In this document: positions 9,163-47,663 of the stretch, one piece after another | Layout: the number at the start of each line of letters is the position of its first letter | Numbering within the stretch: position 1 is the first letter of the stretch | Assembly (NCBI GenBank): GCA_041567895.1 | Contig: JBFGAX010000006.1 | Coordinates: 2,330-66,329, forward strand | Reading direction: 5' to 3' | From: Acidimicrobiia bacterium | GTDB lineage: Bacteria > Actinomycetota > Acidimicrobiia > Spongiisociales > SHLN01 | DNA: 64,000 nucleotides | The notes under the pieces: generated by a model | Told to the model about the DNA's origin: nothing | What the model saw: only the letters and a program-made list of their open reading frames with translations | The model's database searches: none | Program-made: the position numbers and the translations under genes

Positions 9163-10332
9163 GTGATGGGCGCTAGCCTCCTGACCATGGCAACCAACGA
9201 CAAGAAATCTCCGCGTCGTTCGTCCGGCGGGGGCGAGTCAGGCCGAACGAGTGCCGGCCGAACGAGTGCCGGAAAGACCGGGTCCGGAAGCCGATCGTCA
9301 CGGGCGGCAAGCGGAAAAGCTCAAGGAGAGAACCGCCGGTCGTCAGCGGCCGGGTCCGGCAGAGGCGGCGCCGGCAAGACCCGGGCAGGTGGCGGCCGCA
9401 GTGGCGGTGCCGGCAAGAGCGTAGGGCGCACGGCAGGGGCCGGCGGTGCTGGTGCTGGTCGTCAGGACAAGGGTAGGTCGGACGGCCGTTCCCAAAAGGG
9501 CGGTAGTCAGCGCTCGAGTGAACAATCGGCGGGTCGGCCGCGGAGCGGTGCACGAAGGGGTGAATCGCGAGATGGCGACGGCCGCAAGCCACGACCAGGA
9601 GCCAACCGCGACGACCGACGAGATGTCCGACAGGGTTCAACCCGGGACCAGATGACACCGCGAGGCGATTTTGTCTTCAAAGGTCACGAGCTGCCGAAAT
9701 GGGTCAAAGAAGAACTACGACGAACCGCAAAGCGAGGAGCCGGGGACGCTGCGATCGTGGCGCTGACGAAGGCCGCCGCCCATTTTGCCGCGGGCCGTCA
9801 CTCCCAGGCCTTGTCCGAAGCGCGCAACGCAAAGCGACATGCTCCTCAGTCGCCCACGATCATGGAAACGATCGGGATTGCGGCATACCGGAGCGAACTG
9901 TGGGATGAGGCGCTTCGGGAGCTGAAGGCGTTCAGGAGGCGTACCGGAGAAGGAACGCATCTAGCCCTCGAGATGGACATCTTGCGGGCTCTTGGACGAG
10001 ATGCGGATGTCGAAAAGACCTTTGCTTTGGTGCGAACTGGCGAGATGGATGCCGCGGCCCGTTCCGAGGCCAGGGTCGTATACGCCTCATATCTGCTCGA
10101 TCACGGCCGGCCACGTGAAGCCTGGGCTGTGGCAAAACCCGGCAAGATGGGAGAGTCCCCGAGTGAGGCAGCCCTGCGCCAATGGTATGTCGCCGCGAGA
10201 GCCGCGGTCGGGGCCGGAGACATCGAGACCGCTATAAAAATCGGGCAGCGGATACGTAAACACGATGCGGCATTCCCGGGCCTCGAACTTCTCGACGAAG
10301 AGATCGCTGGTTCCGGCAACACAACCACATAA
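9163..10332 (+). CDS. Hypothetical protein: about 170-aa Arg/Gly/Ser/Ala/Lys-rich disordered N-terminal region plus C-terminal alpha-helical TPR-like domain
   Basis: The N-terminus is extremely basic and low-complexity (SGRTSAGRTSAGKTGSGSRSS...GRSGGAGKSVGRTAGAGGAGAGR). The C-terminal 200 aa is helical with repeat-like pairs (ALTKAAAHFAAGRHSQALSEA...). Confidence 0.55.
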   Translation: MMGASLLTMATNDKKSPRRSSGGGESGRTSAGRTSAGKTGSGSRSSRAASGKAQGENRRSSAAGSGRGGAGKTRAGGGRSGGAGKSVGRTAGAGGAGAGRQDKGRSDGRSQKGGSQRSSEQSAGRPRSGARRGESRDGDGRKPRPGANRDDRRDVRQGSTRDQMTPRGDFVFKGHELPKWVKEELRRTAKRGAGDAAIVALTKAAAHFAAGRHSQALSEARNAKRHAPQSPTIMETIGIAAYRSELWDEALRELKAFRRRTGEGTHLALEMDILRALGRDADVEKTFALVRTGEMDAAARSEARVVYASYLLDHGRPREAWAVAKPGKMGESPSEAALRQWYVAARAAVGAGDIETAIKIGQRIRKHDAAFPGLELLDEEIAGSGNTTT

Positions 10333-10434: not shown

Positions 10435-13400
10435 GTGGGGGTACTTCGGGAAGGGTTTGCACGGGTGGAATCGATCGGTCGACGCGTTGTTCGGACACGC
10501 GTCGTGTTAGGGATACTGGCGATTGTTGCTGCGATTTCCTGGACAGGTTTGGGTGCTCCAGCAGGTGCGCATGATTCAGGAGACGATCTCGCGGTTTCGA
10601 TCGTTCCTGTGGTTTCAGGGCTCTCGCAACCAACGGCGGTCGAGATCTCCCCGGATGGCCGCTTCTTCATTCTCGAAAAGGACGGGAAGCTCAAGGTGGC
10701 GAATGGTGAGGGCCAGAGCGCCACGACCGTCCTCGATATTCAGACAGAAGTTCACAGTCAGCTCGACCGGGGCCTCCTGGGTTTGGCGCTCCATCCCGAT
10801 TTCCCGGCGAATGACAGCGTGTACATCAGCTACACGTACGACGCTCCGATTGGAGGCACGGCGCCCACGTACGGCAACGGTAACTGCCCAAACCCCGATG
10901 TCGACGGCTGCCCTGCAACGGGCAAGATTCTGAAGCTCCGCATCAATCCGACGAACCAGATCACCAGTCAGCAGACCCTCGTGCACGGTGCCTGGTGCTA
11001 CCAGTTTCCAACCCACTCGCTCGGCGATCTGGTGTTCGGTCCGGACGGCGCTCTCTACGTTTCTTCCGGGGAGGGCGCCAATCCAGTCACTGCGGACTAC
11101 GGACAGATAGGGTCGAACCCTTGTGGCGATCCCTCATTCGAGGGTGGCGCCGTGCGATCTCAAGATCTGGAGACCAACTTCAACCCGACAGGCGATCCGA
11201 TTACATGGTCGGGTGCCATCGTCCGGTTGGACCCGAACACAGGACAAGCGCGCTCAGACAACCCGCTCGTCCAGGGGCAACCGCAAGGTACGCCTTCCGC
11301 GGCCGATGATCCTCTCATTGCGTACGGGCTTCGCAATCCCTATCGCATGACGTTCCGACCCGGGACCAACGATCTCTGGATCGGTGACGTCGGGTGGGGA
11401 TACGCCGAGGAGATCAATGTTCACACGAATCCTGATGGTTTCGTCGAGAACTTTGGATGGCCTTGCTACGAAGGGCCATCCCCTCAGGGTGTGTACCAGA
11501 GTAAGAACATCCCGATATGTAACGCGCTCTATGGGCAACCCTCGCGAGTCGAAGCGCCCTATTACGCATACGTGCACGAATCCCAGCCGGGCGGTTCCGA
11601 GTGTCAGGCCGAGGGCTCGGCTATCTCTTCGCTCGAGTTCATCGATGGTGCTCCCTACCCGTCGAGTCTCGACGGGTCGCTGGTAGTTGCTGACTATGGA
11701 GTTGGCTGCATCTGGTTGATGGAGCCCGGCGGCAACGGCTTGCCCGATCCTGGTCACGTGGAGACGCTGGCCACGGGGCGCTACACGACTGATATCACCA
11801 GGGCTCCAAATGGCAGCCTCTATGTGGTCGACATCGTCTTCGGAACCGTGAGCCGATTGGACCTTGCTGGTTCCGGCGCCGCTCCCATTGCACGGGTTAC
11901 GGCGTCGCCCCCCGGCGGGTCAACAGCCCCACTGAGCGTCACGTTCGACGCGAGGACCAGCAGTGGAACCAATTTGAGCTTCTCGTGGGACGTTGACAAC
12001 GACGGCGAATTCGACGACGGCATCGGCGCCGTGATCACCAGAACGCTGCAGAGAGGTACGCATCTCGTCTCTGTCCGTGCCAGCAACGGTGCTTTCAGCG
12101 ATGTCGCAACTGTCTCGGTTCCAGTCGGCAACAGCCCCCCGACCGTCACCATCACCTCGCCGGCGTCGTCCGCAACGTTCTCGGCCGGAGACGTCATCGT
12201 CCTCGACGCGTCCGCCTCTGATCCGGATGGAACTCAGCTCACCGACGCCAATTATGAGTGGCAACTGCTGTTGCATCATTGCACCGGCCAGGACTGCCAT
12301 CAGCACTTCGAGGGGACTTACACCGGGCGTCGACAGAGCGTGCAAGGATCCTCGCACCCGTATCCGTCGTACATGGAAGCCGTTCTGACCGTTCACGACG
12401 GCATGGGCGGCACAACGACCGTGTCGCGCGAGATTCAACCGGTTCCGGCGACGCTGACCGTCAGAACAGATCCTCCGGGCGGAAAGATACAGCTGACCCC
12501 GGATTTGGTTGCCACCCCGGCCTCGCAAGTCGTCATCGCCAGGAGTGAGCTGAGCATCTCGGCGCCGGCCCGGCAGGTCATCGGTGGCCAGACCTATGGG
12601 TTCGTTGGATGGTCACAGGGCGGTCCCCGCAGCCAGGAACTCACGGTTGCCGCCGATATGACAGCCACGGCCCGCTACGCCCTCGACAACACGTCGGTGG
12701 CCGTGAGTCCTGCCTCGATCATCATGCCAAATGCTTTTGTCGGCCAGACGACGACGGCCACTATCACGGTCACTACCAGCGGACCTGCGACATCGGTGCC
12801 GGGGTACATCGAGGCGGCAACCGTGAGTGGAGCAGGTCTGGCCCTTGGTGCCATACCGGATGCGGTTCCAGTCAATGCTTCGGCAACCATCCCTGTGACG
12901 TTCTCGCCAACGGTTTCGGGATCGATCAACGGTCAGGCGACTCTCGTGATCAACGGTAAGAACTACACCGTGCCGATCACCGCCAGTGCCACCCTCGCAC
13001 CCATTGCGACACTCCAGGTACCGTCGGATGCAGGCGAGATTGGTCGGATCATCCAGGGGGTCCCTCGTCGTTTCGGTGTGCGGCTCGCAGCCGTCGGGGA
13101 GCCGTATGAACGACCGATTCGGATAACGGGCGCCTCTTCAACCGATCCACGGATTTCAATAGTCGATGTTCCCACCTTGATCAACGTAGGAGAAACGGGA
13201 GTTGTCACGATCTCCGTGAGCGAGGACGAGTTGGGCGTATTCAACTCGGAGCTGGTGGTCCTCGTCGGATTGGAGCGTGTGACGATTGCTCTGCGCGCGG
13301 GCGTTTCGGAGGAAGCTGATTCTCCCGCTCTCTTCGACCCCACAACCGGTCGTTGGCAGGTGACCGATGTATATGGCGACACCAGATACTTCTATTACGG

Positions 13401-14004
13401 CAATCCGGGCGACGTGCCATTGTTGGGCGACTGGGATTGCGACGGATTCGATACCCCCGGCATGTTCCGGCCCTCGAACGGCTTTGTGTATATCACGAAT
13501 CGTGCGCAAACTGGCGTCGCCGAGCGGGAATTCTTCTACGGCCAGGGCGGCGACATCCCGATCGTTGGCGACTGGAACAACAACGGGTGCGACACTCTGG
13601 CGATATATCGGTCAGGAGAAGTGTTTGTTCGAAACTCCCTCGGGACCGGGGTTGCCGACTTTTCATATTTCTTCGGCGACAACGGAGATCGACCCTTTGC
13701 CGGGGATTTCGACGGCGATGGAGTGACGAGTGTCGGCCTGTATCGCGAGACCACCGGATTTGTCTATTTTCGCGACTCGCTCACGAGCGGTAAGGCCGAG
13801 CAGTCCTTCTTCTACGGAATTCCCAGTGACAAGATCATTGCAGGCGACTACGACGGGGACAGCAAGGAAACCGTCGGCATCTTCCGGCCTTTCGAAAGCC
13901 GCTTCTACCTGTCGAATGTGAATGCGCAACGTGCCGCTGACCTCATGATCGACATCGAAGGAGCTTCGGGCTGGATTCCGACCGTGGGGCTCCTGCCAAT
14001 CTGA
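10435..14004 (+). CDS. Large secreted multidomain protein: PQQ-dependent sugar (glucose/sorbosone) dehydrogenase-like beta-propeller + PKD domains + Ig-like region + C-terminal four-fold FG-GAP-like Ca-binding repeats
   Basis: A signal peptide (VLGILAIVAAISWTGLGAPAGA) leads into an sGDH-family block (SGLSQPTAVEISPDGRFFILEKDGKLKV...LDRGLLGLALHPDF...SVYISYTY). PKD-like segments follow (SVTFDARTSSGTNLSFSWDVDNDGEFDDG). The protein ends in four repeats of about 46 aa with consensus FFYG-PGD-P--GDWDGDG-DT-G-YR---GF-Y. Confidence 0.8.
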   Translation: MGVLREGFARVESIGRRVVRTRVVLGILAIVAAISWTGLGAPAGAHDSGDDLAVSIVPVVSGLSQPTAVEISPDGRFFILEKDGKLKVANGEGQSATTVLDIQTEVHSQLDRGLLGLALHPDFPANDSVYISYTYDAPIGGTAPTYGNGNCPNPDVDGCPATGKILKLRINPTNQITSQQTLVHGAWCYQFPTHSLGDLVFGPDGALYVSSGEGANPVTADYGQIGSNPCGDPSFEGGAVRSQDLETNFNPTGDPITWSGAIVRLDPNTGQARSDNPLVQGQPQGTPSAADDPLIAYGLRNPYRMTFRPGTNDLWIGDVGWGYAEEINVHTNPDGFVENFGWPCYEGPSPQGVYQSKNIPICNALYGQPSRVEAPYYAYVHESQPGGSECQAEGSAISSLEFIDGAPYPSSLDGSLVVADYGVGCIWLMEPGGNGLPDPGHVETLATGRYTTDITRAPNGSLYVVDIVFGTVSRLDLAGSGAAPIARVTASPPGGSTAPLSVTFDARTSSGTNLSFSWDVDNDGEFDDGIGAVITRTLQRGTHLVSVRASNGAFSDVATVSVPVGNSPPTVTITSPASSATFSAGDVIVLDASASDPDGTQLTDANYEWQLLLHHCTGQDCHQHFEGTYTGRRQSVQGSSHPYPSYMEAVLTVHDGMGGTTTVSREIQPVPATLTVRTDPPGGKIQLTPDLVATPASQVVIARSELSISAPARQVIGGQTYGFVGWSQGGPRSQELTVAADMTATARYALDNTSVAVSPASIIMPNAFVGQTTTATITVTTSGPATSVPGYIEAATVSGAGLALGAIPDAVPVNASATIPVTFSPTVSGSINGQATLVINGKNYTVPITASATLAPIATLQVPSDAGEIGRIIQGVPRRFGVRLAAVGEPYERPIRITGASSTDPRISIVDVPTLINVGETGVVTISVSEDELGVFNSELVVLVGLERVTIALRAGVSEEADSPALFDPTTGRWQVTDVYGDTRYFYYGNPGDVPLLGDWDCDGFDTPGMFRPSNGFVYITNRAQTGVAEREFFYGQGGDIPIVGDWNNNGCDTLAIYRSGEVFVRNSLGTGVADFSYFFGDNGDRPFAGDFDGDGVTSVGLYRETTGFVYFRDSLTSGKAEQSFFYGIPSDKIIAGDYDGDSKETVGIFRPFESRFYLSNVNAQRAADLMIDIEGASGWIPTVGLLPI

Positions 14005-34771: not shown

Positions 34772-34991
34772 GATTGCTCCTCTGGTCGGGACCAGGCGAC
34801 ACTAGCGAGAGCGTGAGCGCGATTTATTCTTCAGCATGGTGGCTGCGTCCATGGGTACCATCCCTGCCGCAAGATTTGGGGATTGGGAAGGGCTAATCAC
34901 TATTTCGAACTACGGAAGACGATTGCGCGATCGTCCGGGGCGAGTGCCGTTGCGAATACCGCGAACGACCATCTGGTCGTTCAAACCATTC

Positions 34992-36932
34992 ATGCTTCTG
35001 GTCGTTTTGATGGCTGGTTTCTCCGCAACATTTGCCGCCGGCGCCGCTTTTGCAGATGCGACGGAACGACCCTCGTTCGTGAATGCGAACACAGGCGAGT
35101 GGCTGGTGTCGATGGACGGCGGCGCTCATGGTTCGCTCTACTACGGCTCGCCCGGAGATCAGCCACTGGTAGGTGACTGGGATTGTGATGGCCTCGCCAC
35201 CCCCGGCGCCTATCGATCGAGCGATGGCTACGTATATCTACGTAACACCGTAGACACCGGGCCGGGCACGGTGCGCTTCTTTCTCGGGATGCCAGGTGAT
35301 ATCGCACTAGCGGGGGACTTTGACGGTGACGGATGTGACACGATATCGATCTACCGTCAAGCGGAGGGTCGGGTATATGTCGCCAATTCTCTCGGGGCAG
35401 ATGATGGATTCTTTGTTGCGGATTACGACTTTTTCTTCGGTGCGCCAGGCGACACACCGTTCGTGGGAGACTTCGATGGCGATGGGTTCGACACCGTTGG
35501 TCTGCATCGCGAATCCACCGGGTTCGTCTATTTCACCAATGACGTGAACCCGGCTGGATTGGCGCGAACACACAACAGCTTCTTTTATGGGGAACCGGGC
35601 GACGTCATCACGGCCGGCGACTGGAACGGCGATGGCATCGACACCGTAGCGATCCTGCGCCCGGCGGATGGAAACTTCTACGTGCGGTTCTCGAATTCGC
35701 ATGGTCCCGCTCAGGAGGTCCTGCCTGTCCCCGAAGGTCAGTGGACACCGGTTGCTGGTATCACCGCGGTACCTGACGCCATCCCGGTTCCGGAGGAGCC
35801 CGATCCTGAGGAGTCGGGTCCGGTTGTCGTGCATCCTGGCGACCCGCTCGCCGATATGGTCAACACGCGCGGGCCAGGAACTGAATTCTTGATCAAAGCC
35901 GGTGTTCACGTCGGACACGCGCTCTTCCCGGCTTCGGGTATGAAGTTCATTGGAGAGCCCGGGGCTGTTCTAGACGGTGGAGGCACCCCGTTCAACGCGT
36001 TCTTCGGCGCAGACGGCATCGACGGTGTTGAGATTCGTGGACTTGAAATACGCAACTACCGGGTGGGTCTCTTCGATGGCGCCATCAGCGCTCGTGTCGT
36101 CGACGATTGGACGAGCGAAGGGCGCGACTGGCTCGTGGTGGGGAACAACATTCACTCCAACGGCGGTGCCGGCATCAGCCTGGGTTCCGGCATGAGGGTC
36201 ATCGACAACGTCATCCACGACAATCGACAGATCGGCATCAGCGGTATCGCTGACAACGACACCCGCTTGGATCGGATCACCATCGAGGGCAACGAGATCT
36301 ACAGGAACTCCATGAACCCCGACTACGAATTCGGCTTCCATGAAGGCGGTATCAAGACGCTGTTCACGTCGGACCTCCTCGTGCGCAACAACGACATCTA
36401 TGGCAACGGCGGGGTGGCTCTGTATTGCGATGAATTATGCGAATCAGGACTCATCGAAAACAACAGCATGTACGACAATTGGGGCAGGTCAAACGGTGGC
36501 GGCGTATTCCTCGAACTATCCGAGGACATGGTTGTCAGAAACAACTTCATCGGGTCGGGTGGGCACCTGACCTACCCGTATGCGATCCGATTCTTCGGCG
36601 GAATCACAATCGGAGAATCGCACAACATCGTGATAGAAGGCAACCTCGTGGAGGTCAACGATGCCGCTGGCATCGTTGTGCGCAATTGTTGCAGTGAGCG
36701 ACGTGATCCGTCATCGGGAATCGTGGTCGACTCCAACACCGTGCGGTCAACCGATGGTGGTCCGGTAACCGTGGGACTCACCGACGGCAACTCATCCGTT
36801 GATCTCATCACGTACCGCAACAACAGCTATGTCGGCAACGTCGACTTCTATTGGAATGGATCGTGGCTCGGTTTTCAGTCGTGGCAAGATATCGGCCAGG
36901 ATGTGGCGGGAAGCTCGAGTTTCAGCAGTTAA
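34992..36932 (+). CDS. Secreted protein: N-terminal four-fold FG-GAP-like Ca-binding repeats (paralogous to the C-terminus of the 10435..14004 protein) + C-terminal right-handed parallel beta-helix (PbH1, pectate-lyase-fold) domain
   Basis: The signal peptide is MLLVVLMAGFSATFAAGAAFADA. Four repeats follow (YYGSPGDQPLVGDWDCDGLAT..., FFLGMPGDIALAGDFDGDGCDT..., FFFGAPGDTPFVGDFDGDGFDT..., FFYGEPGDVITAGDWNGDGIDT...). The C-terminus has beta-helix rungs (NNIHSNGGAGISLGSGMRVIDNVIHDNRQIGISG...NNDIYGNGGVALYCDE...). Confidence 0.75.
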   Translation: MLLVVLMAGFSATFAAGAAFADATERPSFVNANTGEWLVSMDGGAHGSLYYGSPGDQPLVGDWDCDGLATPGAYRSSDGYVYLRNTVDTGPGTVRFFLGMPGDIALAGDFDGDGCDTISIYRQAEGRVYVANSLGADDGFFVADYDFFFGAPGDTPFVGDFDGDGFDTVGLHRESTGFVYFTNDVNPAGLARTHNSFFYGEPGDVITAGDWNGDGIDTVAILRPADGNFYVRFSNSHGPAQEVLPVPEGQWTPVAGITAVPDAIPVPEEPDPEESGPVVVHPGDPLADMVNTRGPGTEFLIKAGVHVGHALFPASGMKFIGEPGAVLDGGGTPFNAFFGADGIDGVEIRGLEIRNYRVGLFDGAISARVVDDWTSEGRDWLVVGNNIHSNGGAGISLGSGMRVIDNVIHDNRQIGISGIADNDTRLDRITIEGNEIYRNSMNPDYEFGFHEGGIKTLFTSDLLVRNNDIYGNGGVALYCDELCESGLIENNSMYDNWGRSNGGGVFLELSEDMVVRNNFIGSGGHLTYPYAIRFFGGITIGESHNIVIEGNLVEVNDAAGIVVRNCCSERRDPSSGIVVDSNTVRSTDGGPVTVGLTDGNSSVDLITYRNNSYVGNVDFYWNGSWLGFQSWQDIGQDVAGSSSFSS

Positions 36933-36976: not shown

Positions 36977-39900
36977 GTGAATAGCTACGCGAATCCCAAA
37001 GGGTCCTTTTCGAGGGTCGCGATCATCAACCGCGGCGAGGCCGCAATGCGTCTCATCCATGCCGTAGACGAAATAGCTCGAGAAGAACCACATCAGCTCC
37101 GCTCCATCGCCTTTCACACCGAAGCCGAACGCAAGGCCATGTTCGTGCGAGAAGCCCATGAGGCAGTGCGTATTTCGTCGGACAAGGGCAATCCTTATCT
37201 CGATTACGAGGCTTTGAGAAAAGGCTTGATCGACTCGAAAGCCGACGCAGCGTGGGTTGGATGGGGTTTTGTGGCGGAGCACCCGGAGTTTGCCGACCTG
37301 TGCGCCGAATTGGGGATCACGTTCATTGGCCCTCCTGGCGATGTGATGCGCCGCCTTGGGGACAAGATCGGCGCCAAAACGCTGGCCGAGAGTGTTGGCG
37401 TGCCCGTCTCCGCATGGAGCAATGGGCCTGTGTTGGATGAGGCCGACGCCCTCGCTCATGCTGAGCGAATCGGCTATCCGCTCATGGTCAAGGCGGCAGC
37501 CGGGGGAGGGGGTCGCGGTATTCGTCGCGTCAACGACGCATCTGAAGCGGCAGTTGCCTTCGCGCGGGCCAGCGCAGAGGCGTTGGCGAGCTTCGGAGAT
37601 CCCACGGTATTCATGGAGAGAGTTGTGACGGGCGCTCGTCATGTCGAAGTGCAGATTGCCTCCGACCACCATGGGAATTCCTGGGCTCTTGGCGTCCGGG
37701 ATTGCAGCGTTCAGCGCAAGCACCAAAAGGTCATCGAGGAGTCTGCATCGGTGGCTTTGGATCCTGATCAGGTCGCCGAGCTGGGCGAGGCGGCCGTAGC
37801 TCTTGCCAAGGCCGCCGAATACCGAAACCTGGGCACCGTTGAGTTCTTGTATCAGCCTCAAGAACGCCAGTTCGCGTTTCTGGAGGTGAACACCCGTCTT
37901 CAGGTCGAACATCCGGTTACAGAACTCACAACTGGACTGGACCTCGTGAAGCTTCAGCTCGAGCTCGCTGCAGGAAAGCACTTGGAAGGTGCTCCTCCGC
38001 ACGAGTTCGGCCACGCGATCGAAGCCCGTCTCAATGCCGAGGATCCCGAACACGGATTCGCGCCCGCACCCGGTGTCATCGAAGTCCTCAGTTTTCCTGC
38101 GGGTCCGGGTGTGCGTGTCGATACCGGAGTGGCCGAGGGTGACGAGATACCGTCGGATTACGACGCCATGATCGCAAAGATCATTGCCTGGGGAAGAGAT
38201 CGTGATGAGTCTCGCAGGCGGCTGGCGAGGGCGCTGTCCCATACAACGGTGGTGATCCAGGGCGGCACCACCAACAAACCATTTCTTCTCGACCTCATCT
38301 CCAGACCGGAGTTGATTTCGGGGGATTTGGATACGGGGTGGGTTGATCGTTTGACGGCGGCGGGCGAACACATCAATCTCGCATACGGCGAGGTCGCGCT
38401 CATCATTGCGATGATTGATGCCTGGGAATCCGAAACCGCCGCCGAACGAGCCGCGTTCCTGGCTTCCGCCGATCGGGGGAGGCCTTCGGCGGTGACAACG
38501 GTTGGTAAGAGTATTGAATGCTCGTACCGAGGTGAGAACTACGAAGTTTCCGTCCATCGGCTCAGTCCCACGAGATTTCAGGTTGGCCTCGATGGCCGGC
38601 TTGTTGAAGTTGACGTGGAGAGAGTTGGCCGGGTCGAGTCGAGGCTCACCATCAACGGCCGCATCTACGCGACCACCTCGGTCATTCACGGCGTCGACCA
38701 CCTCGTGGAGGTCGAAGGTGTCGCTCACCGGATATCGCGGGATGAAGGGGGCGTCATACGTGCCCCCGCTCCCTCCCTCGTCGTTTCAGTGACGGCCCGG
38801 GAAGGCGCGGACGTGAAAAAGGGCGATGCGTTGCTGGTCGTGGAGTCCATGAAGATGGAGACAACGCTCAACGCGCCATTTGCCGGTCGTGTGAGAGAAG
38901 TGCTTGTTGGTTCGAATACCCAGGTGGATGCCGGCGCACCGCTGATACGGCTGGAACAGGTTGCTGAGGATGATGAAGAAACCGTCGATCTCCCCAGGGT
39001 TTCCTTCTCAGAGCTAACCGGCGATCGGCCGGGCGATCCAACAGGAAAGCACCGTCTCCTTGATCTCCTCGAGCGCCTCAGGTGGGCAGCCGTCGGGTAT
39101 GACGTCGACCCCGAGCGGATCGCAACCTGGGCTTCTGAGTACGAGGAATTGAGAACAACGGTGGAGGCGGACCACGAAGAGATCCTCGCCGCCGAATTGG
39201 CACTTCTTGGTGCCTTCACCGATGTGCTTGCACTCAGCCGCAATCGCGCCTCGTCGACGTCCGAGCGCTCGGTCGAGCACAGCGAACAGGAGTACTTCCA
39301 TAGATACTTGCGTTCGTTGGACGTCGATGCCGAGGGATTGCCAGAGTCCTTCCGTCTCAAACTGTTGCGGGCGCTCGGCCATTTCGGCAAGAACGATCTC
39401 GAGCAGGGTCCGGACCTCGAAGAAGCCGTCTTCGGCATTTTCCGTGCTCAGCAACGATCCCGGGACACCGTGCCGATGATCAGGGCGATCCTCAACAGTG
39501 AGCCGGTTGAGCTCCACGATGTGAGCACGGCCATGCAGGATCGACTGCGGTCAACACTGGGTGATCTCATAACAACGACGCAGGTGCGGTTCCCGATCGT
39601 TGGCGACCTGGCACGAAGTCTGCGTTTTCGGACATTCGACGAGCCTGCGATTCGTGCATCATCGGAGCGCGTTATCGAACAAATGCGGCGCTTGCTGACG
39701 GAGTTGCGCAATGACCCGGAAGGTCCGGACTATGCGCGCCGGGTGGATGAACTCGTGCAGTGTCCAAGGGCGATCGTCGAACTTCTGGCCGATGAACCGG
39801 GCCCGGCGGCCACAGACCCGTTTCTCGAAGTCATGACGCGCCGCTACTACAAGACCCGCGACCTCGGGGATATCACGCTCGACGCAATCGGAGCGTTTCC

Positions 39901-42481
39901 GATCGCGGTGGCGGATTACTCGCGCTCGGGCCAGCCTCGCCGGGTCATTGCACTTCGCGCTGACGGCCCCGACATCGCCGAAGCGCTCTCCTCTCTGTCG
40001 AAAGTCGTGGCGACCCGTTTGGATCGCCCGGTTCTGTGCGATATCTATCTCCGACTCGAAGAGCCGATTCACGACAGCGACGAGATGGCCGATGATCTGA
40101 CCCGCCTCGTGCTCCAAGCTGATTTTCCCGATCACACGCGGCGAATAGCTGTAACGACGTGTGATCCCCAAGGCGCGGTTGAAAACTTCACGATACGTAA
40201 TGGTCGAGACGGCTTCTTCGAAGAAGCCGTCTTTCGTGGGCTCCAGCCCATGATCGCCCGCAGGCTTCAGCTTTGGCGACTGGAGAAGTTCGAGATGCGC
40301 CGGTTGCCTTCTCCGGACGATACATATCTTTTTCATTGCACAGCCTTTGATAATCCGAGAGATCAACGACTGATCGCAGTTGCCGAGGTGAGAGATATCA
40401 CGCCGGTTACAGACGAACAGGGACGGACAACGGGACTGCCTGAGCTAGAACACGTTCTTGCGGCCTGTCTCGACGGAATTCGTCGTGCCCAGGCTGATCG
40501 CCCCCAGAACCGAAGGCTCGAACTCAACAGGGTGCTTCTCAATGTATCTCCGGTGTCGGACATTCCATTCGACGATATGGCGGAGGTGGCGAGACGGCTG
40601 GCCCCCATAACCGACGGTATCGGACTCGATCAAGTGGTCGTCACGTTCAAGACCGCGGACCCCGGAGGGGGTGAACCGGTCGAGCTCGAGCTCCGGCTGT
40701 ATGTTCAGGAAGGCGTAGGGCTTTCGCTCGACATGTACACGCCCTCGACCAAGCCGATTGAGCCGGTGGATCCGTATACCCAGCGTGTTCTCGCCTCGCG
40801 GCGCCGGGGGGCCATCTACCCGTACGAGATCATTCCGATGTTGACTGGAGAGAGTGGCTCGTTCGTCGAATACGATCTGGACGAGGAAGGTCGCTTTGTA
40901 CAGGTCGAGCGCGAGGACGGGGAAAATCGCTCAGGCGTGGTAGCGGGGCTGGTAACGACCGTGACGGACCGATACCCGGAGGGCATGACCCGGGTCGCCA
41001 TCCTGGGTGATCCCACCAAATCACTTGGCTCGATTGCCGAGGCCGAATGCAGGATGATCATCGGTGCGCTCGAACTTGCGGAAGATCGAGGAGTCCCCGT
41101 GGAGTGGTTCTCGGTCTCTTCGGGGGCCAGGATCTCGATGGATAGCGGAACCGAGAACATGGACTGGATCGCTCGTGTGCTTCGACGAATCATTCAATTC
41201 ACGCAGGCGGGTGGCGAGGTTCACATCCTCGTTGCAGGGATCAACGTGGGGGCTCAGCCGTACTGGAACGCTGAGGCGACCATGCTCGACCACACCAAAG
41301 GCATCCTGGTGATGACGCCAGATAGTGCGATGGTGCTCACCGGAAAGCAAGCTCTCGACGTCAGCGGGGGCGTGTCTGCGGAGGACAACTTCGGCATCGG
41401 TGGCTACGACCGCATCATGGGTCCCAATGGTCAGGCTCAATACTGGGCATCGGACCTCGCCGAGGCATGTTGGGTTCTCTTTCGGTACTACGAGCACAGC
41501 TACGTGGCACCAGGCGAACGCTTTCCTCGAAAGGCCACCTCGATCGATCCAATCGATCGCGATATTCGAACCTATCCGCACGAGATCGAAGGCATCGACT
41601 TCACAACGGTTGGTGACATCTTTTCGGCCGAAACCAATCCCGATCGAAAAAAGCCGTTCGACATCCGGACGCTCATGAGAGCCGTAGCCGACCAGGATCG
41701 AGATCCGCTCGAACGATGGGAATCGATGCGGGATGCGGATACAGCTGTCGTGTGGGACGCTTTTCTCGGGGGACGCCCCGTTTGTATGATCGGTGTCGAG
41801 TCGAGACCGTTGCCGCGTCATGGCATCTTGCCTGCCGATGGACCTGATACGTGGTCAGCCGGAACCCTTTTTCCGTTGTCGTCCAAGAAGGTTGCTCGCG
41901 GAATCAACGCTGCCAGCGGGAGCCGTCCGCTCGTTGTGCTCGCCAACCTGTCGGGCTTCGACGGATCACCCGAATCCCTCGCGAAGCTGCAGCTCGAATT
42001 TGGAGCGGAGATTGGAAGGGCAATCGTCAATTTTGACGGACCGATTGTGTTTTGCGTTGTGTCTCGATACCACGGGGGAGCGTTCGTGGTTTTCTCGGGT
42101 GCCCTCCACGACAACATGCAAGTGTTGGCGGTCGAGGGTTCACACGCCTCGGTACTGGGAGGAGCTCCGGCGGCTGCTGTGGTTTTCGCCCGTGAAGTCA
42201 AGAACCGCGTTGACAGTGATCCGCTCGTCCAACGGCTGGAAGCGAGGATCAGCGAGCTCTCCGGTAGCAGCGACGTGACGGCAATCCGGGCCGAACTGGC
42301 AGAAGTTCGCCAGGCGGTGTATGCCGAGAAACTCGGTGAGGTTGCGGACGAGTTCGATGCGATCCACACCATCGAAAGAGCCCGCGACGTGGGATCGGTC
42401 GATCGGATCGTCGCCGCCGCCGACCTGCGTCCCGAACTCATTTCGGCCGTCGAGCGCGGAATCGCCGCCGCCGGACCGTAG
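36977..42481 (+). CDS. Single-chain multidomain biotin-dependent acyl-CoA carboxylase (BC - BT - BCCP - CT-N - CT-C; LCC-like)
   Basis: The 1834-aa protein has an N-terminal ATP-grasp biotin carboxylase (RVAIINRGEAAMRLIHA..., GYPLMVKAAAGGGGRGIR), a biotinyl domain with ALLVVESMKMETTLNAPFAG, and two carboxyltransferase halves. The domain order is that of the mycobacterial single-chain long-chain acyl-CoA carboxylase. Confidence 0.85.
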   Translation: MNSYANPKGSFSRVAIINRGEAAMRLIHAVDEIAREEPHQLRSIAFHTEAERKAMFVREAHEAVRISSDKGNPYLDYEALRKGLIDSKADAAWVGWGFVAEHPEFADLCAELGITFIGPPGDVMRRLGDKIGAKTLAESVGVPVSAWSNGPVLDEADALAHAERIGYPLMVKAAAGGGGRGIRRVNDASEAAVAFARASAEALASFGDPTVFMERVVTGARHVEVQIASDHHGNSWALGVRDCSVQRKHQKVIEESASVALDPDQVAELGEAAVALAKAAEYRNLGTVEFLYQPQERQFAFLEVNTRLQVEHPVTELTTGLDLVKLQLELAAGKHLEGAPPHEFGHAIEARLNAEDPEHGFAPAPGVIEVLSFPAGPGVRVDTGVAEGDEIPSDYDAMIAKIIAWGRDRDESRRRLARALSHTTVVIQGGTTNKPFLLDLISRPELISGDLDTGWVDRLTAAGEHINLAYGEVALIIAMIDAWESETAAERAAFLASADRGRPSAVTTVGKSIECSYRGENYEVSVHRLSPTRFQVGLDGRLVEVDVERVGRVESRLTINGRIYATTSVIHGVDHLVEVEGVAHRISRDEGGVIRAPAPSLVVSVTAREGADVKKGDALLVVESMKMETTLNAPFAGRVREVLVGSNTQVDAGAPLIRLEQVAEDDEETVDLPRVSFSELTGDRPGDPTGKHRLLDLLERLRWAAVGYDVDPERIATWASEYEELRTTVEADHEEILAAELALLGAFTDVLALSRNRASSTSERSVEHSEQEYFHRYLRSLDVDAEGLPESFRLKLLRALGHFGKNDLEQGPDLEEAVFGIFRAQQRSRDTVPMIRAILNSEPVELHDVSTAMQDRLRSTLGDLITTTQVRFPIVGDLARSLRFRTFDEPAIRASSERVIEQMRRLLTELRNDPEGPDYARRVDELVQCPRAIVELLADEPGPAATDPFLEVMTRRYYKTRDLGDITLDAIGAFPIAVADYSRSGQPRRVIALRADGPDIAEALSSLSKVVATRLDRPVLCDIYLRLEEPIHDSDEMADDLTRLVLQADFPDHTRRIAVTTCDPQGAVENFTIRNGRDGFFEEAVFRGLQPMIARRLQLWRLEKFEMRRLPSPDDTYLFHCTAFDNPRDQRLIAVAEVRDITPVTDEQGRTTGLPELEHVLAACLDGIRRAQADRPQNRRLELNRVLLNVSPVSDIPFDDMAEVARRLAPITDGIGLDQVVVTFKTADPGGGEPVELELRLYVQEGVGLSLDMYTPSTKPIEPVDPYTQRVLASRRRGAIYPYEIIPMLTGESGSFVEYDLDEEGRFVQVEREDGENRSGVVAGLVTTVTDRYPEGMTRVAILGDPTKSLGSIAEAECRMIIGALELAEDRGVPVEWFSVSSGARISMDSGTENMDWIARVLRRIIQFTQAGGEVHILVAGINVGAQPYWNAEATMLDHTKGILVMTPDSAMVLTGKQALDVSGGVSAEDNFGIGGYDRIMGPNGQAQYWASDLAEACWVLFRYYEHSYVAPGERFPRKATSIDPIDRDIRTYPHEIEGIDFTTVGDIFSAETNPDRKKPFDIRTLMRAVADQDRDPLERWESMRDADTAVVWDAFLGGRPVCMIGVESRPLPRHGILPADGPDTWSAGTLFPLSSKKVARGINAASGSRPLVVLANLSGFDGSPESLAKLQLEFGAEIGRAIVNFDGPIVFCVVSRYHGGAFVVFSGALHDNMQVLAVEGSHASVLGGAPAAAVVFAREVKNRVDSDPLVQRLEARISELSGSSDVTAIRAELAEVRQAVYAEKLGEVADEFDAIHTIERARDVGSVDRIVAAADLRPELISAVERGIAAAGP

Positions 42482-43050: not shown

Positions 43051-44124
43051 TCACCACGGCATGCGGTTCACAATTCCTGTCTCGTCTGAAGGGTCCGTCA
43101 GCCAAAAGCGGCTGACCGCGTTCGGCGAATATGATTTCAATGTCTTCATGTAGTTCGCCCGCTCATACCCCGTTGGGTCGGCAGCCGTCGTGTAGCTCAC
43201 GCTTCCACGGGCCTGTTCTACAGATAGATACTCGCGCTCGGTGAACCATTGGGTCATCTCAGCCACCACTTCGGCAATGTGATAAGGGCCATGCTTGAGG
43301 AGGGCCGAAGTCATCATTGTCACGTCAGCCCCGGCAAGAATCATTTTGACGGCATCTTCGCCCGTGTGGATCCCCGTGGTGGCGGCGAGCGAAGCTTTCA
43401 TCGTTGCTCGGAGAATTCCGATCCAACGAAGGGCCAACCGCGATTCGATCGAGGTGCTCAATTTGAGATTCGGTGAGACCGTGAGATGTTCGAGATCGAT
43501 GTCTGGTTGGTAGAAACGGTTGAAGAGCACCAACCCGTCGGCTCCCGCCTCAACGAGGCGATGCGCCATATGCCCGGGGGAACTGAAATAGGGACCGACC
43601 TTGACGGACAGAGGAATAGTCACAGTGTCTCTCACTTCGCGGACGAGGTGCAAGTACTGCTCCTCGATTGCAGTGCCGGGCATCGTGATGTCGCTGGCAA
43701 CCAGATAGATGTTGAGTTCGAGGGCTGCGGCACCCGCATCCTGTATCTGCCGTGCGTACGACGTCCATCCGCCGCTACTGACGCCATTCAGGCTCCCGAT
43801 GACAGGGATCGTCAGTGCCTTGCTCGCCCGCTCGAGCAGGTTCAAGTACTCATCCGGTCCCGTGTTGTAGTCATCGAGCTCGGGGAAGTAGCCGGTAGCA
43901 GCCTCCGGCTGATTTCCGGCGCCGTACTCGAGTCCGAGATCCACGTTCAGCGCTTCGTGCTCGATCTGTTCCTCGAAGAGGGAAGGCAGCACAACCGCCG
44001 CAGCTCCTGCCGCTTCAAGCTCGAGCAGCGTATCCAGTCGCCCGGTCAGTGGGCCGGCCGATGCCACCACAGGGTGGCTCAAAGTCAGCCCGAGGTAGGT
44101 GGTGGTCAAGTCTGTTTTCATCAT
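43051..44124 (-). CDS. Dihydroorotate dehydrogenase-like (class 1 DHOD-family TIM-barrel flavoprotein) protein, co-located with PFOR
   Basis: YLGLTLSHPVVASAGPL...VIGSLNG...LELNIY...GLVLFNRF...ATTGIHTGEDAVKMILAGADVTMM matches the DHOD/DHPD family. It overlaps the PFOR stop by 4 nt. Confidence 0.6.
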   Translation of the reverse strand: MMKTDLTTTYLGLTLSHPVVASAGPLTGRLDTLLELEAAGAAAVVLPSLFEEQIEHEALNVDLGLEYGAGNQPEAATGYFPELDDYNTGPDEYLNLLERASKALTIPVIGSLNGVSSGGWTSYARQIQDAGAAALELNIYLVASDITMPGTAIEEQYLHLVREVRDTVTIPLSVKVGPYFSSPGHMAHRLVEAGADGLVLFNRFYQPDIDLEHLTVSPNLKLSTSIESRLALRWIGILRATMKASLAATTGIHTGEDAVKMILAGADVTMMTSALLKHGPYHIAEVVAEMTQWFTEREYLSVEQARGSVSYTTAADPTGYERANYMKTLKSYSPNAVSRFWLTDPSDETGIVNRMPW

Positions 44125-47100
44125 TCCTCCAGATCTCCGAATCGAGCTGTCCGTTCTACCGAGACCATTTGTTCATAAAGATGCCACCGGTCGTCGATGT
44201 CGCGCTGTGCCGCCTCATAGAGACGTGCCGCCACGTCTGGCTGCGATCGAGCAAGCATGGCGAATCGAGCCTCGGTGGCTGCAAACTCTTTGAACGGGAT
44301 GGTGGGTTTGCGGCTATCGAGGTGGAGCGCGTGATCACCCTTGTCCTCGCGTCCAGGATCGAAGCGGTACAGTGGCCAATAGCCGCTCTCGGCTGCCATC
44401 TTCTGGTGCGCCGCCATTTCTCCCAGGTCGTAGCCGTGGGCGATACAGGGGCTGTAGGCGATGATCAACGACGGACCGGGGTGGGCTTCAGCCTCCACAA
44501 ATGCCTTGATGGTTTGTGTCATGTTTGCCCCCATGGCGATCTGCGCTACGTAGACACCGCCATAGCCCATGGCAATCATCCCGAGATCCTTTTTAGCGGT
44601 CGTCTTTCCGCCGGCTGAAAACTTGGCTGTGGCGGCTCGCGGTGTTGCTTTCGACGTCTGCCCACCCGTATTGGAGTAGACCTCGGTGTCCAGGACGAGG
44701 ATGTTGACATTTCGACCAGACGCCAGAACGTGATCAAGACCGCCAAAACCAATGTCGTATGCCCAACCATCGCCGCCAACGATCCAGACTCCAGTTGTCA
44801 CGAGATATTCGGCAAGTTCGAGCAGCCTGTTGGCTTCGATGGATTCGATGTCTGACAGCTGGCGTTTCAGTTCATCCACGCGGTCACGCTGGCGGTTGAT
44901 TCCGGCCTCGTCACTCTGATCTGCAGCCAGAACTTCTTGCGCCAACTGGCCGATTTCGGCTTCCATTGCTGTCAGAAGCTGCCGGGCACTTCGGGCGTGA
45001 TGGTCGAACGCCAATCGCATCCCGAGACCGAACTCGGCGTTGTCTTCGAAGAGAGAGTTGGACCAGGCAGGGCCTCGTCCACCGTCACTCTTGCTCCAGG
45101 GCGTGGTGGGAAGATTTCCACCGTAGATAGAAGAACAGCCTGTCGCGTTTGCAACGACGATCCGATCCCCGAAGAGTTGGCTCATGAGCTTGAGGTACGG
45201 AGTTTCTCCGCAGCCCGCGCATGCACCGGAGAATTCAAACAACGGTTGTGCCAGCTGCGAACCTTTGACCGAATCGAGGCGAATCCGGGTTCGGTCGTAT
45301 TCCGGCAATGAGAGAAAGAATTCGAAGTTGTTGCGCTCGTCTTCGAGATGGAACCTGATGGGTTCCATGTCTATCGCTTTGTGCTTTGCGACTTCTTTGC
45401 TTTTGGCTGGACAGATGCTCACGCACACACCACAGCCGGTGCAGTCATCGGGAGCCACCTGCACGATGAGACGCTCTGTTTCGCTCTTCTCCCATACTTT
45501 GCTCTTGAAAGAATCCGGCGCGCCGGTCAGGAGCCCATCGTTCTCCACGACTTTGATCCGAATTGCCGCGTGGGGGCACACGAGCGCGCACCTGGCACAG
45601 TCGATGCAGATCTCCGGATCCCAAATAGGGATCTCCGTCGCAATCGTGCGCTTCTCCCACTGCGCCGACCCCGTGTCAAATGTTCCGTCCACTGGCAACG
45701 CGCTGACCGGGAGCAGATCCCCGGTTCCTGACATGATCGCGGCCGTGACGCGCTCGACCGCAGCTTCGGGTGGAACCACGGGGCGCATGAGCCGTCCTCC
45801 CGTGACCTCGGCAGGAATGGCGACACGCTCCAAACCGTCGAGGGATGCGTCGACCACTGCCCAGTTGCGGTCGACGATCGCTTTGCCACGCTTGCCGTAG
45901 GTCTTCTGAATCGATCTCTTGATGGCGGCGATGGCCTGATCGGTCTCGATGATGTTCGCCAGGCCGAAAAAGCACGTCTGGAGCACCGTGTTGATTCGTC
46001 CTCCCAAGCCGGCATCTCGGGCAATGCGGTTGGCGTCGATCACCCACATTTCGAGCTGCTTCTTGATCACCTGGCGTTGGGCGTCGCTCGGCATGTGCGA
46101 CCAGACCTCCTCAGCCGAATAGGGGCTATTGAGGAGAAACGTCGCGCCGGGAGCGGCGATATCGAGCATCGGGAACCGTTCGAGGAATCCGAAATTGTGA
46201 CAGGCTACGAAGTCCGCCTCCTCGATGAGATAGCTCGAATGGATGGGCGTGGGCCCAAATCGCAGATGCGATATGGTGCGGGAGCCGGATTTCTTCGAGT
46301 CGTAGACGAAATATCCCTGGGCGTAGAGATCTGTTTCTTCGCCGATGATCTTCACGGAGTTCTTGTTGGCGCCGACCGTGCCGTCGGCTCCCAGTCCGTA
46401 GAACACCGCTCGCGACACGGCAGGAGATTCGGACCAGGATTGGTCATCAATGCCCAGGCTCAGATGAGAAACGTCATCGACGATGCCCACCGTGAAGTGG
46501 GGGAGGGGGGCGGGTTTTTGGAGCTCATCGAACACGGACAAAACCATGGCAGGCGTGAACTCTTTTGATGACAGTCCATAGCGACCACCAATGACGTTTG
46601 GCAGAGGTCGTGTGCCTGACTCGACGAGCGCCGTCAGCACGTCCTGATAGAGCGGCTCGCCAACCGCTCCCGGCTCTTTGGTACGGTCCAAAACGGCGAT
46701 CGAGGTCGCGGACGCCGGCAAGGCATCGGTGAATGCTCTAGCGGAGAAGGGTCGATAGAGCCGGACAATTATGGCCCCGATGCGCTCTCCACGACCCGCT
46801 CCGACCTCAACCACCTCCCGCACCGGCCCTGATCCCGACCCCATGAGAACCACAATGCGTTCTGCCTCGGGATGGCCTACGTAGTCGAACAACCGGTACG
46901 GTCGACCGGTCAGAGACGCAAGAGTGTCCATTTCACGTTGAACGAGATCAGGGACCGCCGCGTGGAAAGGGTTGGACGCCTCTCGCGCCTGGAAGAACAC
47001 ATCGGGATTCTGTGCGGTCCCGCGCAAAACCGGTGCGTTGGGATTGAGCCCTCGCATGCGGTGCTCGCGTATGAGAGCGTCATCCGTCATTGCGGTCATG

Positions 47101-47663
47101 GTGTCGAAGTCGAGCAGTGAGACCTTGGCGACCTCATGGCTCGTTCGGAATCCATCAAAAAAGTGGATGAACGGAACTCTGGATCGCAGAGTCGCTGCGT
47201 GTGCAACCAGCGCCAGGTCGTGAGCCTCTTGCACAGACCCGGATGCGAGCATTGCCATGCCGGTCTGACGCACCGCCATGACGTCGCTGTGATCTCCAAA
47301 GATGCTGAGTGCATGGGTGGCAACCGTCCGGGCCGCGACGTGTACGACCGCCGCAGTGAGCTCTCCAGCGATCTTGTAGAGATTGGGAATCATCAACAGC
47401 AATCCCTGTGATGCCGTGAACGTGGTGGTGAGCGCACCCGCCTGAAGGGCACCGTGCAAGCTTCCGGCTGCACCTGCTTCACTCTGCATCTCGACGACAT
47501 CGGGAATGGCGCCCCATATGTTTCGCTGGCCGGCCATCGACCATGCATCCGCCAGTTCGCCCATCGGGGAGGCCGGCGTTATCGGGTAAATGGCGATGAC
47601 TTCAGAGAGCGCATGGGCAACACGAGCAGCTGCTTCATTTCCATCAATGGTTACGTGGGTCAT
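44121..47663 (-). CDS. nifJ: Pyruvate:ferredoxin (flavodoxin) oxidoreductase, single-polypeptide NifJ type
   Basis: The protein is 1180 aa. The N-terminus is MTHVTIDGNEAAARVAHALSEVIAIYPITPASPMGE. Two 4Fe-4S ferredoxin motifs are present (CIDCARCALVCPHAAI, CTGCGVCVSICP). The TPP-binding C-terminal domain has GGDGWAYDIG. Confidence 0.9.
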   Translation of the reverse strand: MTHVTIDGNEAAARVAHALSEVIAIYPITPASPMGELADAWSMAGQRNIWGAIPDVVEMQSEAGAAGSLHGALQAGALTTTFTASQGLLLMIPNLYKIAGELTAAVVHVAARTVATHALSIFGDHSDVMAVRQTGMAMLASGSVQEAHDLALVAHAATLRSRVPFIHFFDGFRTSHEVAKVSLLDFDTMTAMTDDALIREHRMRGLNPNAPVLRGTAQNPDVFFQAREASNPFHAAVPDLVQREMDTLASLTGRPYRLFDYVGHPEAERIVVLMGSGSGPVREVVEVGAGRGERIGAIIVRLYRPFSARAFTDALPASATSIAVLDRTKEPGAVGEPLYQDVLTALVESGTRPLPNVIGGRYGLSSKEFTPAMVLSVFDELQKPAPLPHFTVGIVDDVSHLSLGIDDQSWSESPAVSRAVFYGLGADGTVGANKNSVKIIGEETDLYAQGYFVYDSKKSGSRTISHLRFGPTPIHSSYLIEEADFVACHNFGFLERFPMLDIAAPGATFLLNSPYSAEEVWSHMPSDAQRQVIKKQLEMWVIDANRIARDAGLGGRINTVLQTCFFGLANIIETDQAIAAIKRSIQKTYGKRGKAIVDRNWAVVDASLDGLERVAIPAEVTGGRLMRPVVPPEAAVERVTAAIMSGTGDLLPVSALPVDGTFDTGSAQWEKRTIATEIPIWDPEICIDCARCALVCPHAAIRIKVVENDGLLTGAPDSFKSKVWEKSETERLIVQVAPDDCTGCGVCVSICPAKSKEVAKHKAIDMEPIRFHLEDERNNFEFFLSLPEYDRTRIRLDSVKGSQLAQPLFEFSGACAGCGETPYLKLMSQLFGDRIVVANATGCSSIYGGNLPTTPWSKSDGGRGPAWSNSLFEDNAEFGLGMRLAFDHHARSARQLLTAMEAEIGQLAQEVLAADQSDEAGINRQRDRVDELKRQLSDIESIEANRLLELAEYLVTTGVWIVGGDGWAYDIGFGGLDHVLASGRNVNILVLDTEVYSNTGGQTSKATPRAATAKFSAGGKTTAKKDLGMIAMGYGGVYVAQIAMGANMTQTIKAFVEAEAHPGPSLIIAYSPCIAHGYDLGEMAAHQKMAAESGYWPLYRFDPGREDKGDHALHLDSRKPTIPFKEFAATEARFAMLARSQPDVAARLYEAAQRDIDDRWHLYEQMVSVERTARFGDLEE

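Follow-up and report, generated by a model that had tools for sequence, protein, structure and literature searches.

Two secreted proteins encoded by a 64,000-nucleotide stretch of an Acidimicrobiia bacterium genome (GenBank assembly GCA_041567895.1, contig JBFGAX010000006.1, positions 2,330 to 66,329 of the forward strand; the whole stretch is hereafter called the window) share a repeat module of ~230 residues, which forms the extreme C-terminus of the protein of open reading frame (ORF) A and follows the signal peptide in that of ORF B. The module is a new, unmodelled family inside the known VCBS/FG-GAP superfamily. Profile alignments, strand counts and coevolution make it very probable that the module is a five-bladed β-propeller whose fifth blade is split between the two chain ends. 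As for its function, we lean towards an autonomous, calcium-stabilised, lectin-like propeller that would tether exoproteins to, or target them at, a conserved glycan.

The shared module and its repeats

A four-repeat module common to both proteins had been proposed in a preliminary description of the window. Comparison of the C-terminal 223 residues of A with residues ~79-309 of B by BLASTP showed an end-to-end alignment with 47% identity (E=6e-67), and the motif GD[WFY][DN]x[DN][GS] is found eight times when the window is translated in six frames, 8/8 inside ORFs A and B, confirming the proposal. Both modules contain four consecutive repeats of ~45-51 residues each (about 46) with the pattern F-[FY]-[YF]-G-x-x-G-D-x-P-x-x-G-D-[WFY]-[DN]-x-[DN]-G-x-[DE]-T-x-G-x-[YF]-R-...-[FV]-Y. 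Within module A, repeats 1-2 and repeats 3-4 share 39% identity (E=4e-20). The TGxW start and the cysteines of repeat 1 (GDWDCDG) and repeat 2 ((N/D)GCDT), also described earlier, are seen in both proteins.

Module A, modelled with AlphaFold2 (AF2) and compared by Foldseek, occupies 13321..14001 of the forward strand (residues 963-1189) and runs up to the stop codon. Its N-terminal half-repeat (SPALFDPTTGRWQVT..., 13321..13389, +) carries the TGxW segment and is predicted from hhalign to contribute strands B and C to the split fifth blade (strands E14-19 and E24-28). The four complete repeats follow on the same strand: repeat 1 at 13390..13530 (residues 986-1032) with the loop GDWDCDGFDT and Cys1002 at 13438-13440, repeat 2 at 13531..13665 (residues 1033-1077) with the loop GDWNNNGCDT and Cys1052 at 13588-13590, repeat 3 at 13666..13806 (residues 1078-1124) with the loop GDFDGDGVTS, and repeat 4 at 13807..13947 (residues 1125-1171) with the loop GDYDGDSKET, the family's least conserved calcium loop. 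The C-terminal half-repeat (IDIEGASGWIPTVGLLPI, 13948..14001, +) has no calcium loop and is predicted to hold strand D of blade 4 as well as the split fifth blade's innermost strand (E221-224 and E232-236 in the AF2 model). Module B lies at 35070..35762 (+, residues ~79-309), with Cys117 at 35184-35186 and Cys167 at 35334-35336. The module first described is real and slightly larger than stated, spanning 13321..14001 in A and ~35070..35762 in B; the earlier end at 35700 trimmed off the C-terminal partial repeat.

Predicted fold and number of blades

The AF2 model of nucleotides 13333-14001 (model 1), built on an alignment of 52 sequences, is an all-β structure of 18 strands with a predicted local distance difference test score (pLDDT) of 96.0 and a predicted template-modelling score (pTM) of 0.90. 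Model 2, to which 17 upstream residues were added (nucleotides 13282-14001), has 20 strands with a pLDDT of 95.1 and a pTM of 0.90. The compact fold that had been anticipated is confidently predicted (pLDDT 95-96, pTM 0.90). The two strands gained in model 2, N-terminal 'SPALFD' and C-terminal 'IPTVG', each have a pLDDT of ~94-96.

Structural comparisons of model 1 with the PDB by Foldseek placed the propeller of UmbA4 (9oee_A) first (E=3e-6), followed by ITFG2 (KICSTOR) and many integrin alpha chains. UmbA4 again came first for model 2 (E=3.9e-8, TM-score on query 0.54), and the matches then included Bap1, AAL2, PVL and a TcB propeller. E values for these seven proteins ranged from 4e-8 to 4e-3, and BBSome propellers were likewise among the matches of the module. 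No small propeller in the PDB was found by Foldseek to match the module closely. When the family profile was compared with all PDB sequences, only chain 9oee_A matched, via its GDFNGDG loops, at a non-significant E of 0.11. The fold is assigned from these two comparisons to the FG-GAP/VCBS propeller group, and the FG-GAP-like character with DxDxDG loops that had been suggested earlier is borne out by the structural relatives and the conserved loops.

The segments that flank the four repeats are complementary parts of a fifth. Ahead of repeat 1 the family consensus reads VGxVDPxTGxWxLR, similar to the repeat's second half (TxGxYRxSDGFVYLR), and past repeat 4 it reads ADxxFxxGxxxWxPVAGxF, similar to the repeat's first half (ADxxFFFGNPGDxPxAGDF). 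In the hhalign comparison, the N-flank matched repeat positions 20-41 (P=7.5e-8) and the C-flank matched positions 1-15 (P=6.2e-5), so that together the flanks make up one repeat minus just four loop residues. The 20 strands of model 2 correspond to five times four, and the two strands gained are those expected to pair in a fifth blade, supporting five blades. Coevolution was analysed by mean-field direct coupling analysis (DCA) of 309 distinct modules (Meff=212). The couplings join neighbouring repeats all round the ring, and the pair (214,17), which connects the C-terminal with the N-terminal piece, is the register equivalent of the pair (75,106) within repeat 2. The fifth blade would be built of the C-terminal 'FxxGxxxWxPVAG' and the N-terminal 'VGxVDPxTGxWxLR', contributing one and three strands, respectively, and would close the ring in a velcro manner without a cation loop.

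Two considerations temper the assignment of five blades. The ring-closure pairs rank just 33rd and 42nd among the DCA couplings at an Meff of 212, and the blade number, like the Cys-Cys distance and any pocket, is derived from strand counts, profile alignments and coevolution. A propeller with four blades, as the preliminary description had envisaged, would have one blade per complete repeat, with the terminal segments serving as edge strands or linkers. The sequence shows just four cation loops and as many complete repeats, and four-bladed propellers with ~45-residue blades exist in the hemopexin fold. However, the terminal segments are homologous to complementary parts of the repeat and coevolve in its register, the model has 20 strands with a pLDDT of 94-96 at both termini, and a hemopexin-like match is absent from the top 50 Foldseek matches, so that four blades are improbable and the earlier idea is not borne out. 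A hemopexin-like four-blade identity was rejected on the same strand count, with no hemopexin match in Pfam or among the top Foldseek matches.

Disulfide, cation loops and conservation

The inter-repeat disulfide suggested in the preliminary description was examined by covariation. Both cysteines are present in 263 of the 309 modules, neither in 44, and only two modules have a mismatch (Fisher p=4e-51, without correction for phylogeny). Modules without the cysteine pair mostly carry a G...F/R/K pair instead. The cysteine pair is also the top DCA coupling, with a score of 9.41 vs. 5.26 for the next pair. Together, the covariation and the top coupling strongly support the predicted disulfide Cys1002-Cys1052, which would join loop position 4 of blade 1 to loop position 7 of blade 2.

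The cation loop, D-[WF]-[DN]-x-[DN]-G-x-[DE]-T, follows the innermost strand of each complete repeat and precedes the next strand. In blades 1-3 of the 309 modules, D1, D/N3, D/N5, G6, D/E8 and T9 are near-invariant, and about every second member has a degenerate position 3 in the blade-4 loop. The mean column entropy is 0.88-1.11 bits in blades 1-3, 1.50 bits in blade 4 and 2.1-2.2 bits in the split blade. This drop in conservation round the ring could reflect the location of a ligand face or the packing of the passenger.

A new family related to known propellers

Sequence searches gave weak contact with existing models. The two modules of the window matched only FG-GAP (E=0.11, 12.9 bits) and FG-GAP_3 (E=0.47, 11.5 bits). 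None of the isolated modules tested (n=12) reached the gathering score of FG-GAP (PF01839) or FG-GAP_3 (PF13517), and the best of the ten further modules scored 22.4 bits vs. the FG-GAP_3 cut-off of 26.9. Sub-threshold matches to the FG-GAP and FG-GAP_3 models were found in 8/12. The question raised earlier, whether the repeat is a known Pfam family, is answered by this lack of a match at curated thresholds. No NCBIfam model matched the module, and the Pfam scan gave no hemolysin/RTX-type signal on it, on which grounds a hemolysin/RTX-type identity was rejected. A search of PDB sequences with a single module returned nothing meaningful, the sole match being a T-cell receptor chain (E=1.5). The literature search returned nothing joining FG-GAP with Acidimicrobiia, and the combination of five-bladed and FG-GAP gave only work on tachylectin evolution.

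The C-terminal propeller of UmbA4 from Streptomyces coelicolor (PDB 9oee) is a lectin of six blades whose ligand is teichuronic acid of the cell wall (Cell 2025, PMC13274773). Like the module, it is actinobacterial, secreted and terminal, and its repeats carry GDF(N/D)GDG cation loops. However, it has six blades instead of five, shares 16-17% identity with the module and has no noted cysteine pair. UmbA4 is, moreover, a spoke of an umbrella toxin with a trypsin-like domain, and its blades are diversified for target specificity.

The Pfam families FG-GAP and FG-GAP_3 (VCBS) share with the module the four-stranded blades, the DxDxDG-type loop between strands A and B (the first two strands) and the occurrence in secreted prokaryotic proteins with interaction domains. 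The module differs from them in the last acidic ligand at loop position 8 (DxDxDGxD-T), the five blades, the split loop-less blade and the conserved inter-blade disulfide. The DxDxDG loop between strands A and B is likewise a feature of the VCBS supercluster of Pereira & Lupas (2021; PMC8023676), and the Foldseek matches place the module closest to VCBS, integrin and PVL propellers. Integrin alpha has seven FG-GAP blades, whereas the module has four complete repeats and one split. The 'VCBS actinolectins' are uncharacterised propellers found only in actinobacteria that stand alone or are preceded by a TIM barrel (PMC8023676). Compared by description only, these resemble the module in their restriction to Actinobacteria, their signal sequence and their occurrence alone or fused to a catalytic domain, and the module family may coincide with them or be their sister. 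Tachylectin-2 belongs to the supercluster, in which tachylectin-like propellers lack the Asp-rich loop (PMC8023676). Tachylectin-2 (PDB 1TL2), a multivalent sugar binder, resembles the module in its five blades of ~47 residues and its velcro closure (predicted for the module). However, it gave no match to the family profile at E<=10 and is absent from the top 50 Foldseek matches.

Placement of the module and its partners

Module placement was counted in 220 proteins with a single module. The module is N-terminal, straight after an AxA-type signal peptide, in 88/220 and C-terminal, ending <=8 residues from the stop, in another 88/220; 30/220 are module-only proteins, and in 14/220 the module is near-terminal or fragmentary. 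Among 97 module-bearing stop-to-stop ORFs from genomic loci, 54 have the module at the C-terminus and 34 at the N-terminus, with nine unclear. A C-terminal sorting signal was rejected as an explanation since the module is N-terminal as often as C-terminal. The closest relatives of the C-terminal module A (59-63% identity) are N-terminal modules of 353-residue proteins, indicating that the module swaps ends between close relatives. Attachment at either end by a single linker is explained by the predicted sharing of one blade by both chain termini. The linkers are rich in Pro, Gly and Thr.

The partner domains include TolB/PD40/DPP-like propellers, Big_9, cadherin-like and tandem-95 repeats; β-helix/NosD, CEMIP with G8, glucose/sorbosone dehydrogenase (GSDH), GH26, GH99 and pectate-lyase-like domains; and YkuD L,D-transpeptidase with PG_binding_1, subtilase, SGNH hydrolase, fasciclin and Excalibur. 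With dozens of different partners at either terminus, the portable module swapped among secreted enzymes that had been proposed earlier is supported. None of the 79 N-terminal-module proteins examined has a C-terminal hydrophobic tail (0/79), and a scan of N-terminal-module proteins for LPXTG and transmembrane tails found no alternative anchors, which is compatible with the module as the anchor and no proof of it. Choice-of-anchor Q domains occur in three partner proteins, and in ORF A a weakly matching choice-of-anchor D-like domain lies just ahead of the module.

Candidate functions

The preference for glycan binding, which the preliminary description had raised together with adhesion, rests on the kinship with UmbA4, the behaviour of VCBS propellers, which typically recognise carbohydrates (PMC8023676, PMC9218822), and the architecture statistics. 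Blades 1-3 are well conserved across paralogues with differing partners (0.9-1.1 bits vs. 2.1-2.2 bits in the split blade), which counts in favour of a single ligand. In the proposed mechanism, calcium in the loops would stabilise the fold, and the cation loops of the first two blades would be stapled together by the disulfide. One conserved ligand, most likely a glycan, would bind to the conserved face of blades 1-3, so that the passengers would be tethered to the envelope or targeted to a polysaccharide. The most plausible target would be the producer's own cell-envelope polymer, with a common environmental polysaccharide as the alternative.

Several observations fit this mechanism poorly. 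A free lectin would account for the stand-alone module proteins more readily than an anchor would, and the top-face loops (GNPGD, RxSDG) could be conserved for structural reasons alone. Furthermore, the GW of the sugar-pocket loop is replaced by G-D (G-N-P-G-D) in blades 1-4; in tachylectin-2 and PVL, the sugar pocket is lined by a GW at this loop, a motif that is not universal in the supercluster (PMC8023676). A tryptophan at the GW-loop position is found solely in the C-terminal half-repeat (GxxxWxPVAG), where 'xxxW' stands in place of 'NPGD', and this residue may mark a single binding site beside the split blade.

More tentatively, the lectin-like propeller could be a general non-covalent surface-display device of Acidimicrobiia that binds a conserved cell-wall glycopolymer and retains much of the exoproteome. 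If so, proteases, glycoside hydrolases, dehydrogenases, L,D-transpeptidases and adhesins would be kept on the cell by the module, which would be a functional equivalent of SLH, LysM or sortase systems on an unrelated fold. The anchoring modules SLH, LysM, CWB2 and GW resemble it by functional analogy only, being terminal, portable and present in many exoproteins of one lineage with many paralogues per genome; however, their folds are unrelated, and anchoring by the module is putative.

An unlikely alternative is a dockerin-like domain for protein-protein docking, by which exoenzymes would be mounted on a common surface receptor or scaffold with no glycan bound. Several of the best fold matches bind protein (ITFG2 in KICSTOR, integrin alpha, BBS proteins), the surface conserved across paralogues with different passengers would suit one protein partner equally, and the terminal position and Pro-rich linker recall the usage of dockerins. 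However, no candidate scaffold or receptor gene lies beside the module genes in the window, and the single best match, which is also the only one detectable by sequence, is a lectin propeller. Bacterial VCBS propellers are, in addition, mostly tied to carbohydrate recognition (PMC9218822).

The module might instead be an RTX-like cap without a ligand, whose calcium-dependent folding or stability aids export or shields the passengers from extracellular proteolysis. The three to four conserved cation loops and the disulfide, features that form only outside the cytoplasm, would suit such a cap, as would the confinement of the module to proteins with signal peptides. However, a propeller of 230 residues would be costly for this role, secreted module-only proteins exist, and the strong conservation of the surface loops over thousands of clusters suggests a selected interaction. 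To our knowledge, no propeller has a folding cap as its sole role, and we consider this explanation doubtful.

A targeting lectin for interbacterial antagonism, which would recognise competitor surface glycans in the manner of UmbA, is very improbable: although UmbA4, with a propeller that binds the teichuronic acid of the target cell (PMC13274773), is the best structural match, and UmbA proteins include five-bladed propeller lectin domains, neither A nor B has the trypsin-like UmbA domain, genes for UmbB, UmbC or toxins are absent from the Pfam-scanned flanking genes, the strong conservation of the module family contrasts with the high diversification of UmbA lectins, and the partners are enzymes and adhesin-like domains rather than toxins. 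A component of an umbrella toxin was rejected, with no trypsin domain, no umb neighbourhood and housekeeping genes as neighbours.

Size and distribution of the family

When 1.84 billion cluster representatives (50%-identity clusters) were searched exhaustively with a profile, 9,892 matched at E<=1e-30, 22,366 at E<=1e-10 and 30,417 at E<=1e-3. A word-indexed search saturated at >1000 matches; most of the top 120 lack a source name, and the named ones are almost all a 'hypothetical protein' from Acidimicrobiia metagenome-assembled genomes (MAGs). A scan with one genome per species confirmed at least 349 loci, of which the best 80 are almost all from Acidimicrobiia/Actinomycetota MAGs. The family is almost confined to Acidimicrobiia, a group abundant in marine and sediment microbiomes and almost uncultured. 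Eight loci with typical members (L003, L020, L023, L024, L037, L044, L061 and L063) are labelled Acidiferrobacterales, Gammaproteobacteria, Kiloniellaceae or Acidobacteriota. These off-lineage labels likely reflect mis-binning or mislabelling of Acidimicrobiia contigs, with horizontal transfer as the less likely explanation.

A single MAG can hold several loci: among the best 80, seven are from JBFIPU01, four from JBFKDW01 and four from DATHUP01. Module genes are often adjacent, as in L038:421-5143, where three module ORFs are consecutive, and in L067, L026, L071, L022 and L058. This arrangement suggests local duplication and domain shuffling. The giant proteins P0121 (3432 residues), P0126 (3436 residues), P0123 and P0124 have up to 9-10 overlapping module-like stretches, and the same repeat type probably also forms longer arrays or several propellers per chain.

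The ~10,000 clusters (50% identity) that carry the module have closest database relatives that are mostly unnamed or annotated as 'hypothetical protein'. With a dedicated profile, a large part of the Acidimicrobiia secreted proteome would gain an annotation, and proteins that are likely surface-displayed or glycan-targeted would be flagged. The module also offers a natural example of a small VCBS-type propeller, with its predicted split loop-less closing blade and covarying disulfide, useful for studying how propellers evolved and for design. It extends a known superfamily and overturns nothing known, so that its value is that of a useful annotation rather than of a new kind of biology.

Host proteins and their neighbourhood

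Both host proteins begin with Sec-type signal peptides. ORF A (10435..14004, +) encodes a secreted multidomain protein of 1189 residues in which the signal peptide is followed by a GSDH/PQQ-type propeller, a PKD domain, Ig-like domains and the C-terminal module. The glucose-sorbosone-dehydrogenase-type β-propeller lies at 10609..11853 (+, residues ~59-473; PF07995 E=1e-28, TIGR03606 E=2.7e-16) and the PKD domain at 11893..12123 (+, residues 487-563; PF00801 E=8.9e-7). An Ig-like domain of the HYDIN/VesB or choice-of-anchor D-like type at 12676..12984 (+, residues ~748-850) is matched by PF22544 (24.3 bits) and NF012200 (23.9 bits), both under the curated cut-offs, and a Big_7 fragment is also present. 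ORF B (34836..36932, +) has 698 residues in its longest form and likely starts at 34992. Its signal peptide and module are followed by a Pro/Glu-rich linker and a right-handed parallel β-helix at 36126..36725 (+, residues ~431-630; PF13229 E=1e-20, NosD-like E=3e-7). The fusion partners named in the preliminary description, a PQQ-type dehydrogenase and a β-helix, are as described, whereas its 'PKD array' consists of a single PKD domain together with further Ig-like domains.

The neighbourhood in the window is that of an ordinary chromosome (GGT, ABC-F, fused ACC, PFOR) and not an island. Directly upstream of ORF A, at 9163..10332 (+), lies a 389-residue protein with a Gly/Ser/Arg-rich low-complexity N-terminal part of ~170 residues followed by a TPR-like region. 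Downstream of ORF B, the 1834-residue carboxylase at 36977..42481 (+) holds biotin carboxylase, BCCP, ACC_central and carboxyltransferase in one chain, a eukaryote-like architecture within a bacterium. A full-length pyruvate:ferredoxin oxidoreductase of 1180 residues is encoded at 44121..47663 (-), and the genome, with ~59-61% GC, looks like that of Acidimicrobiia.

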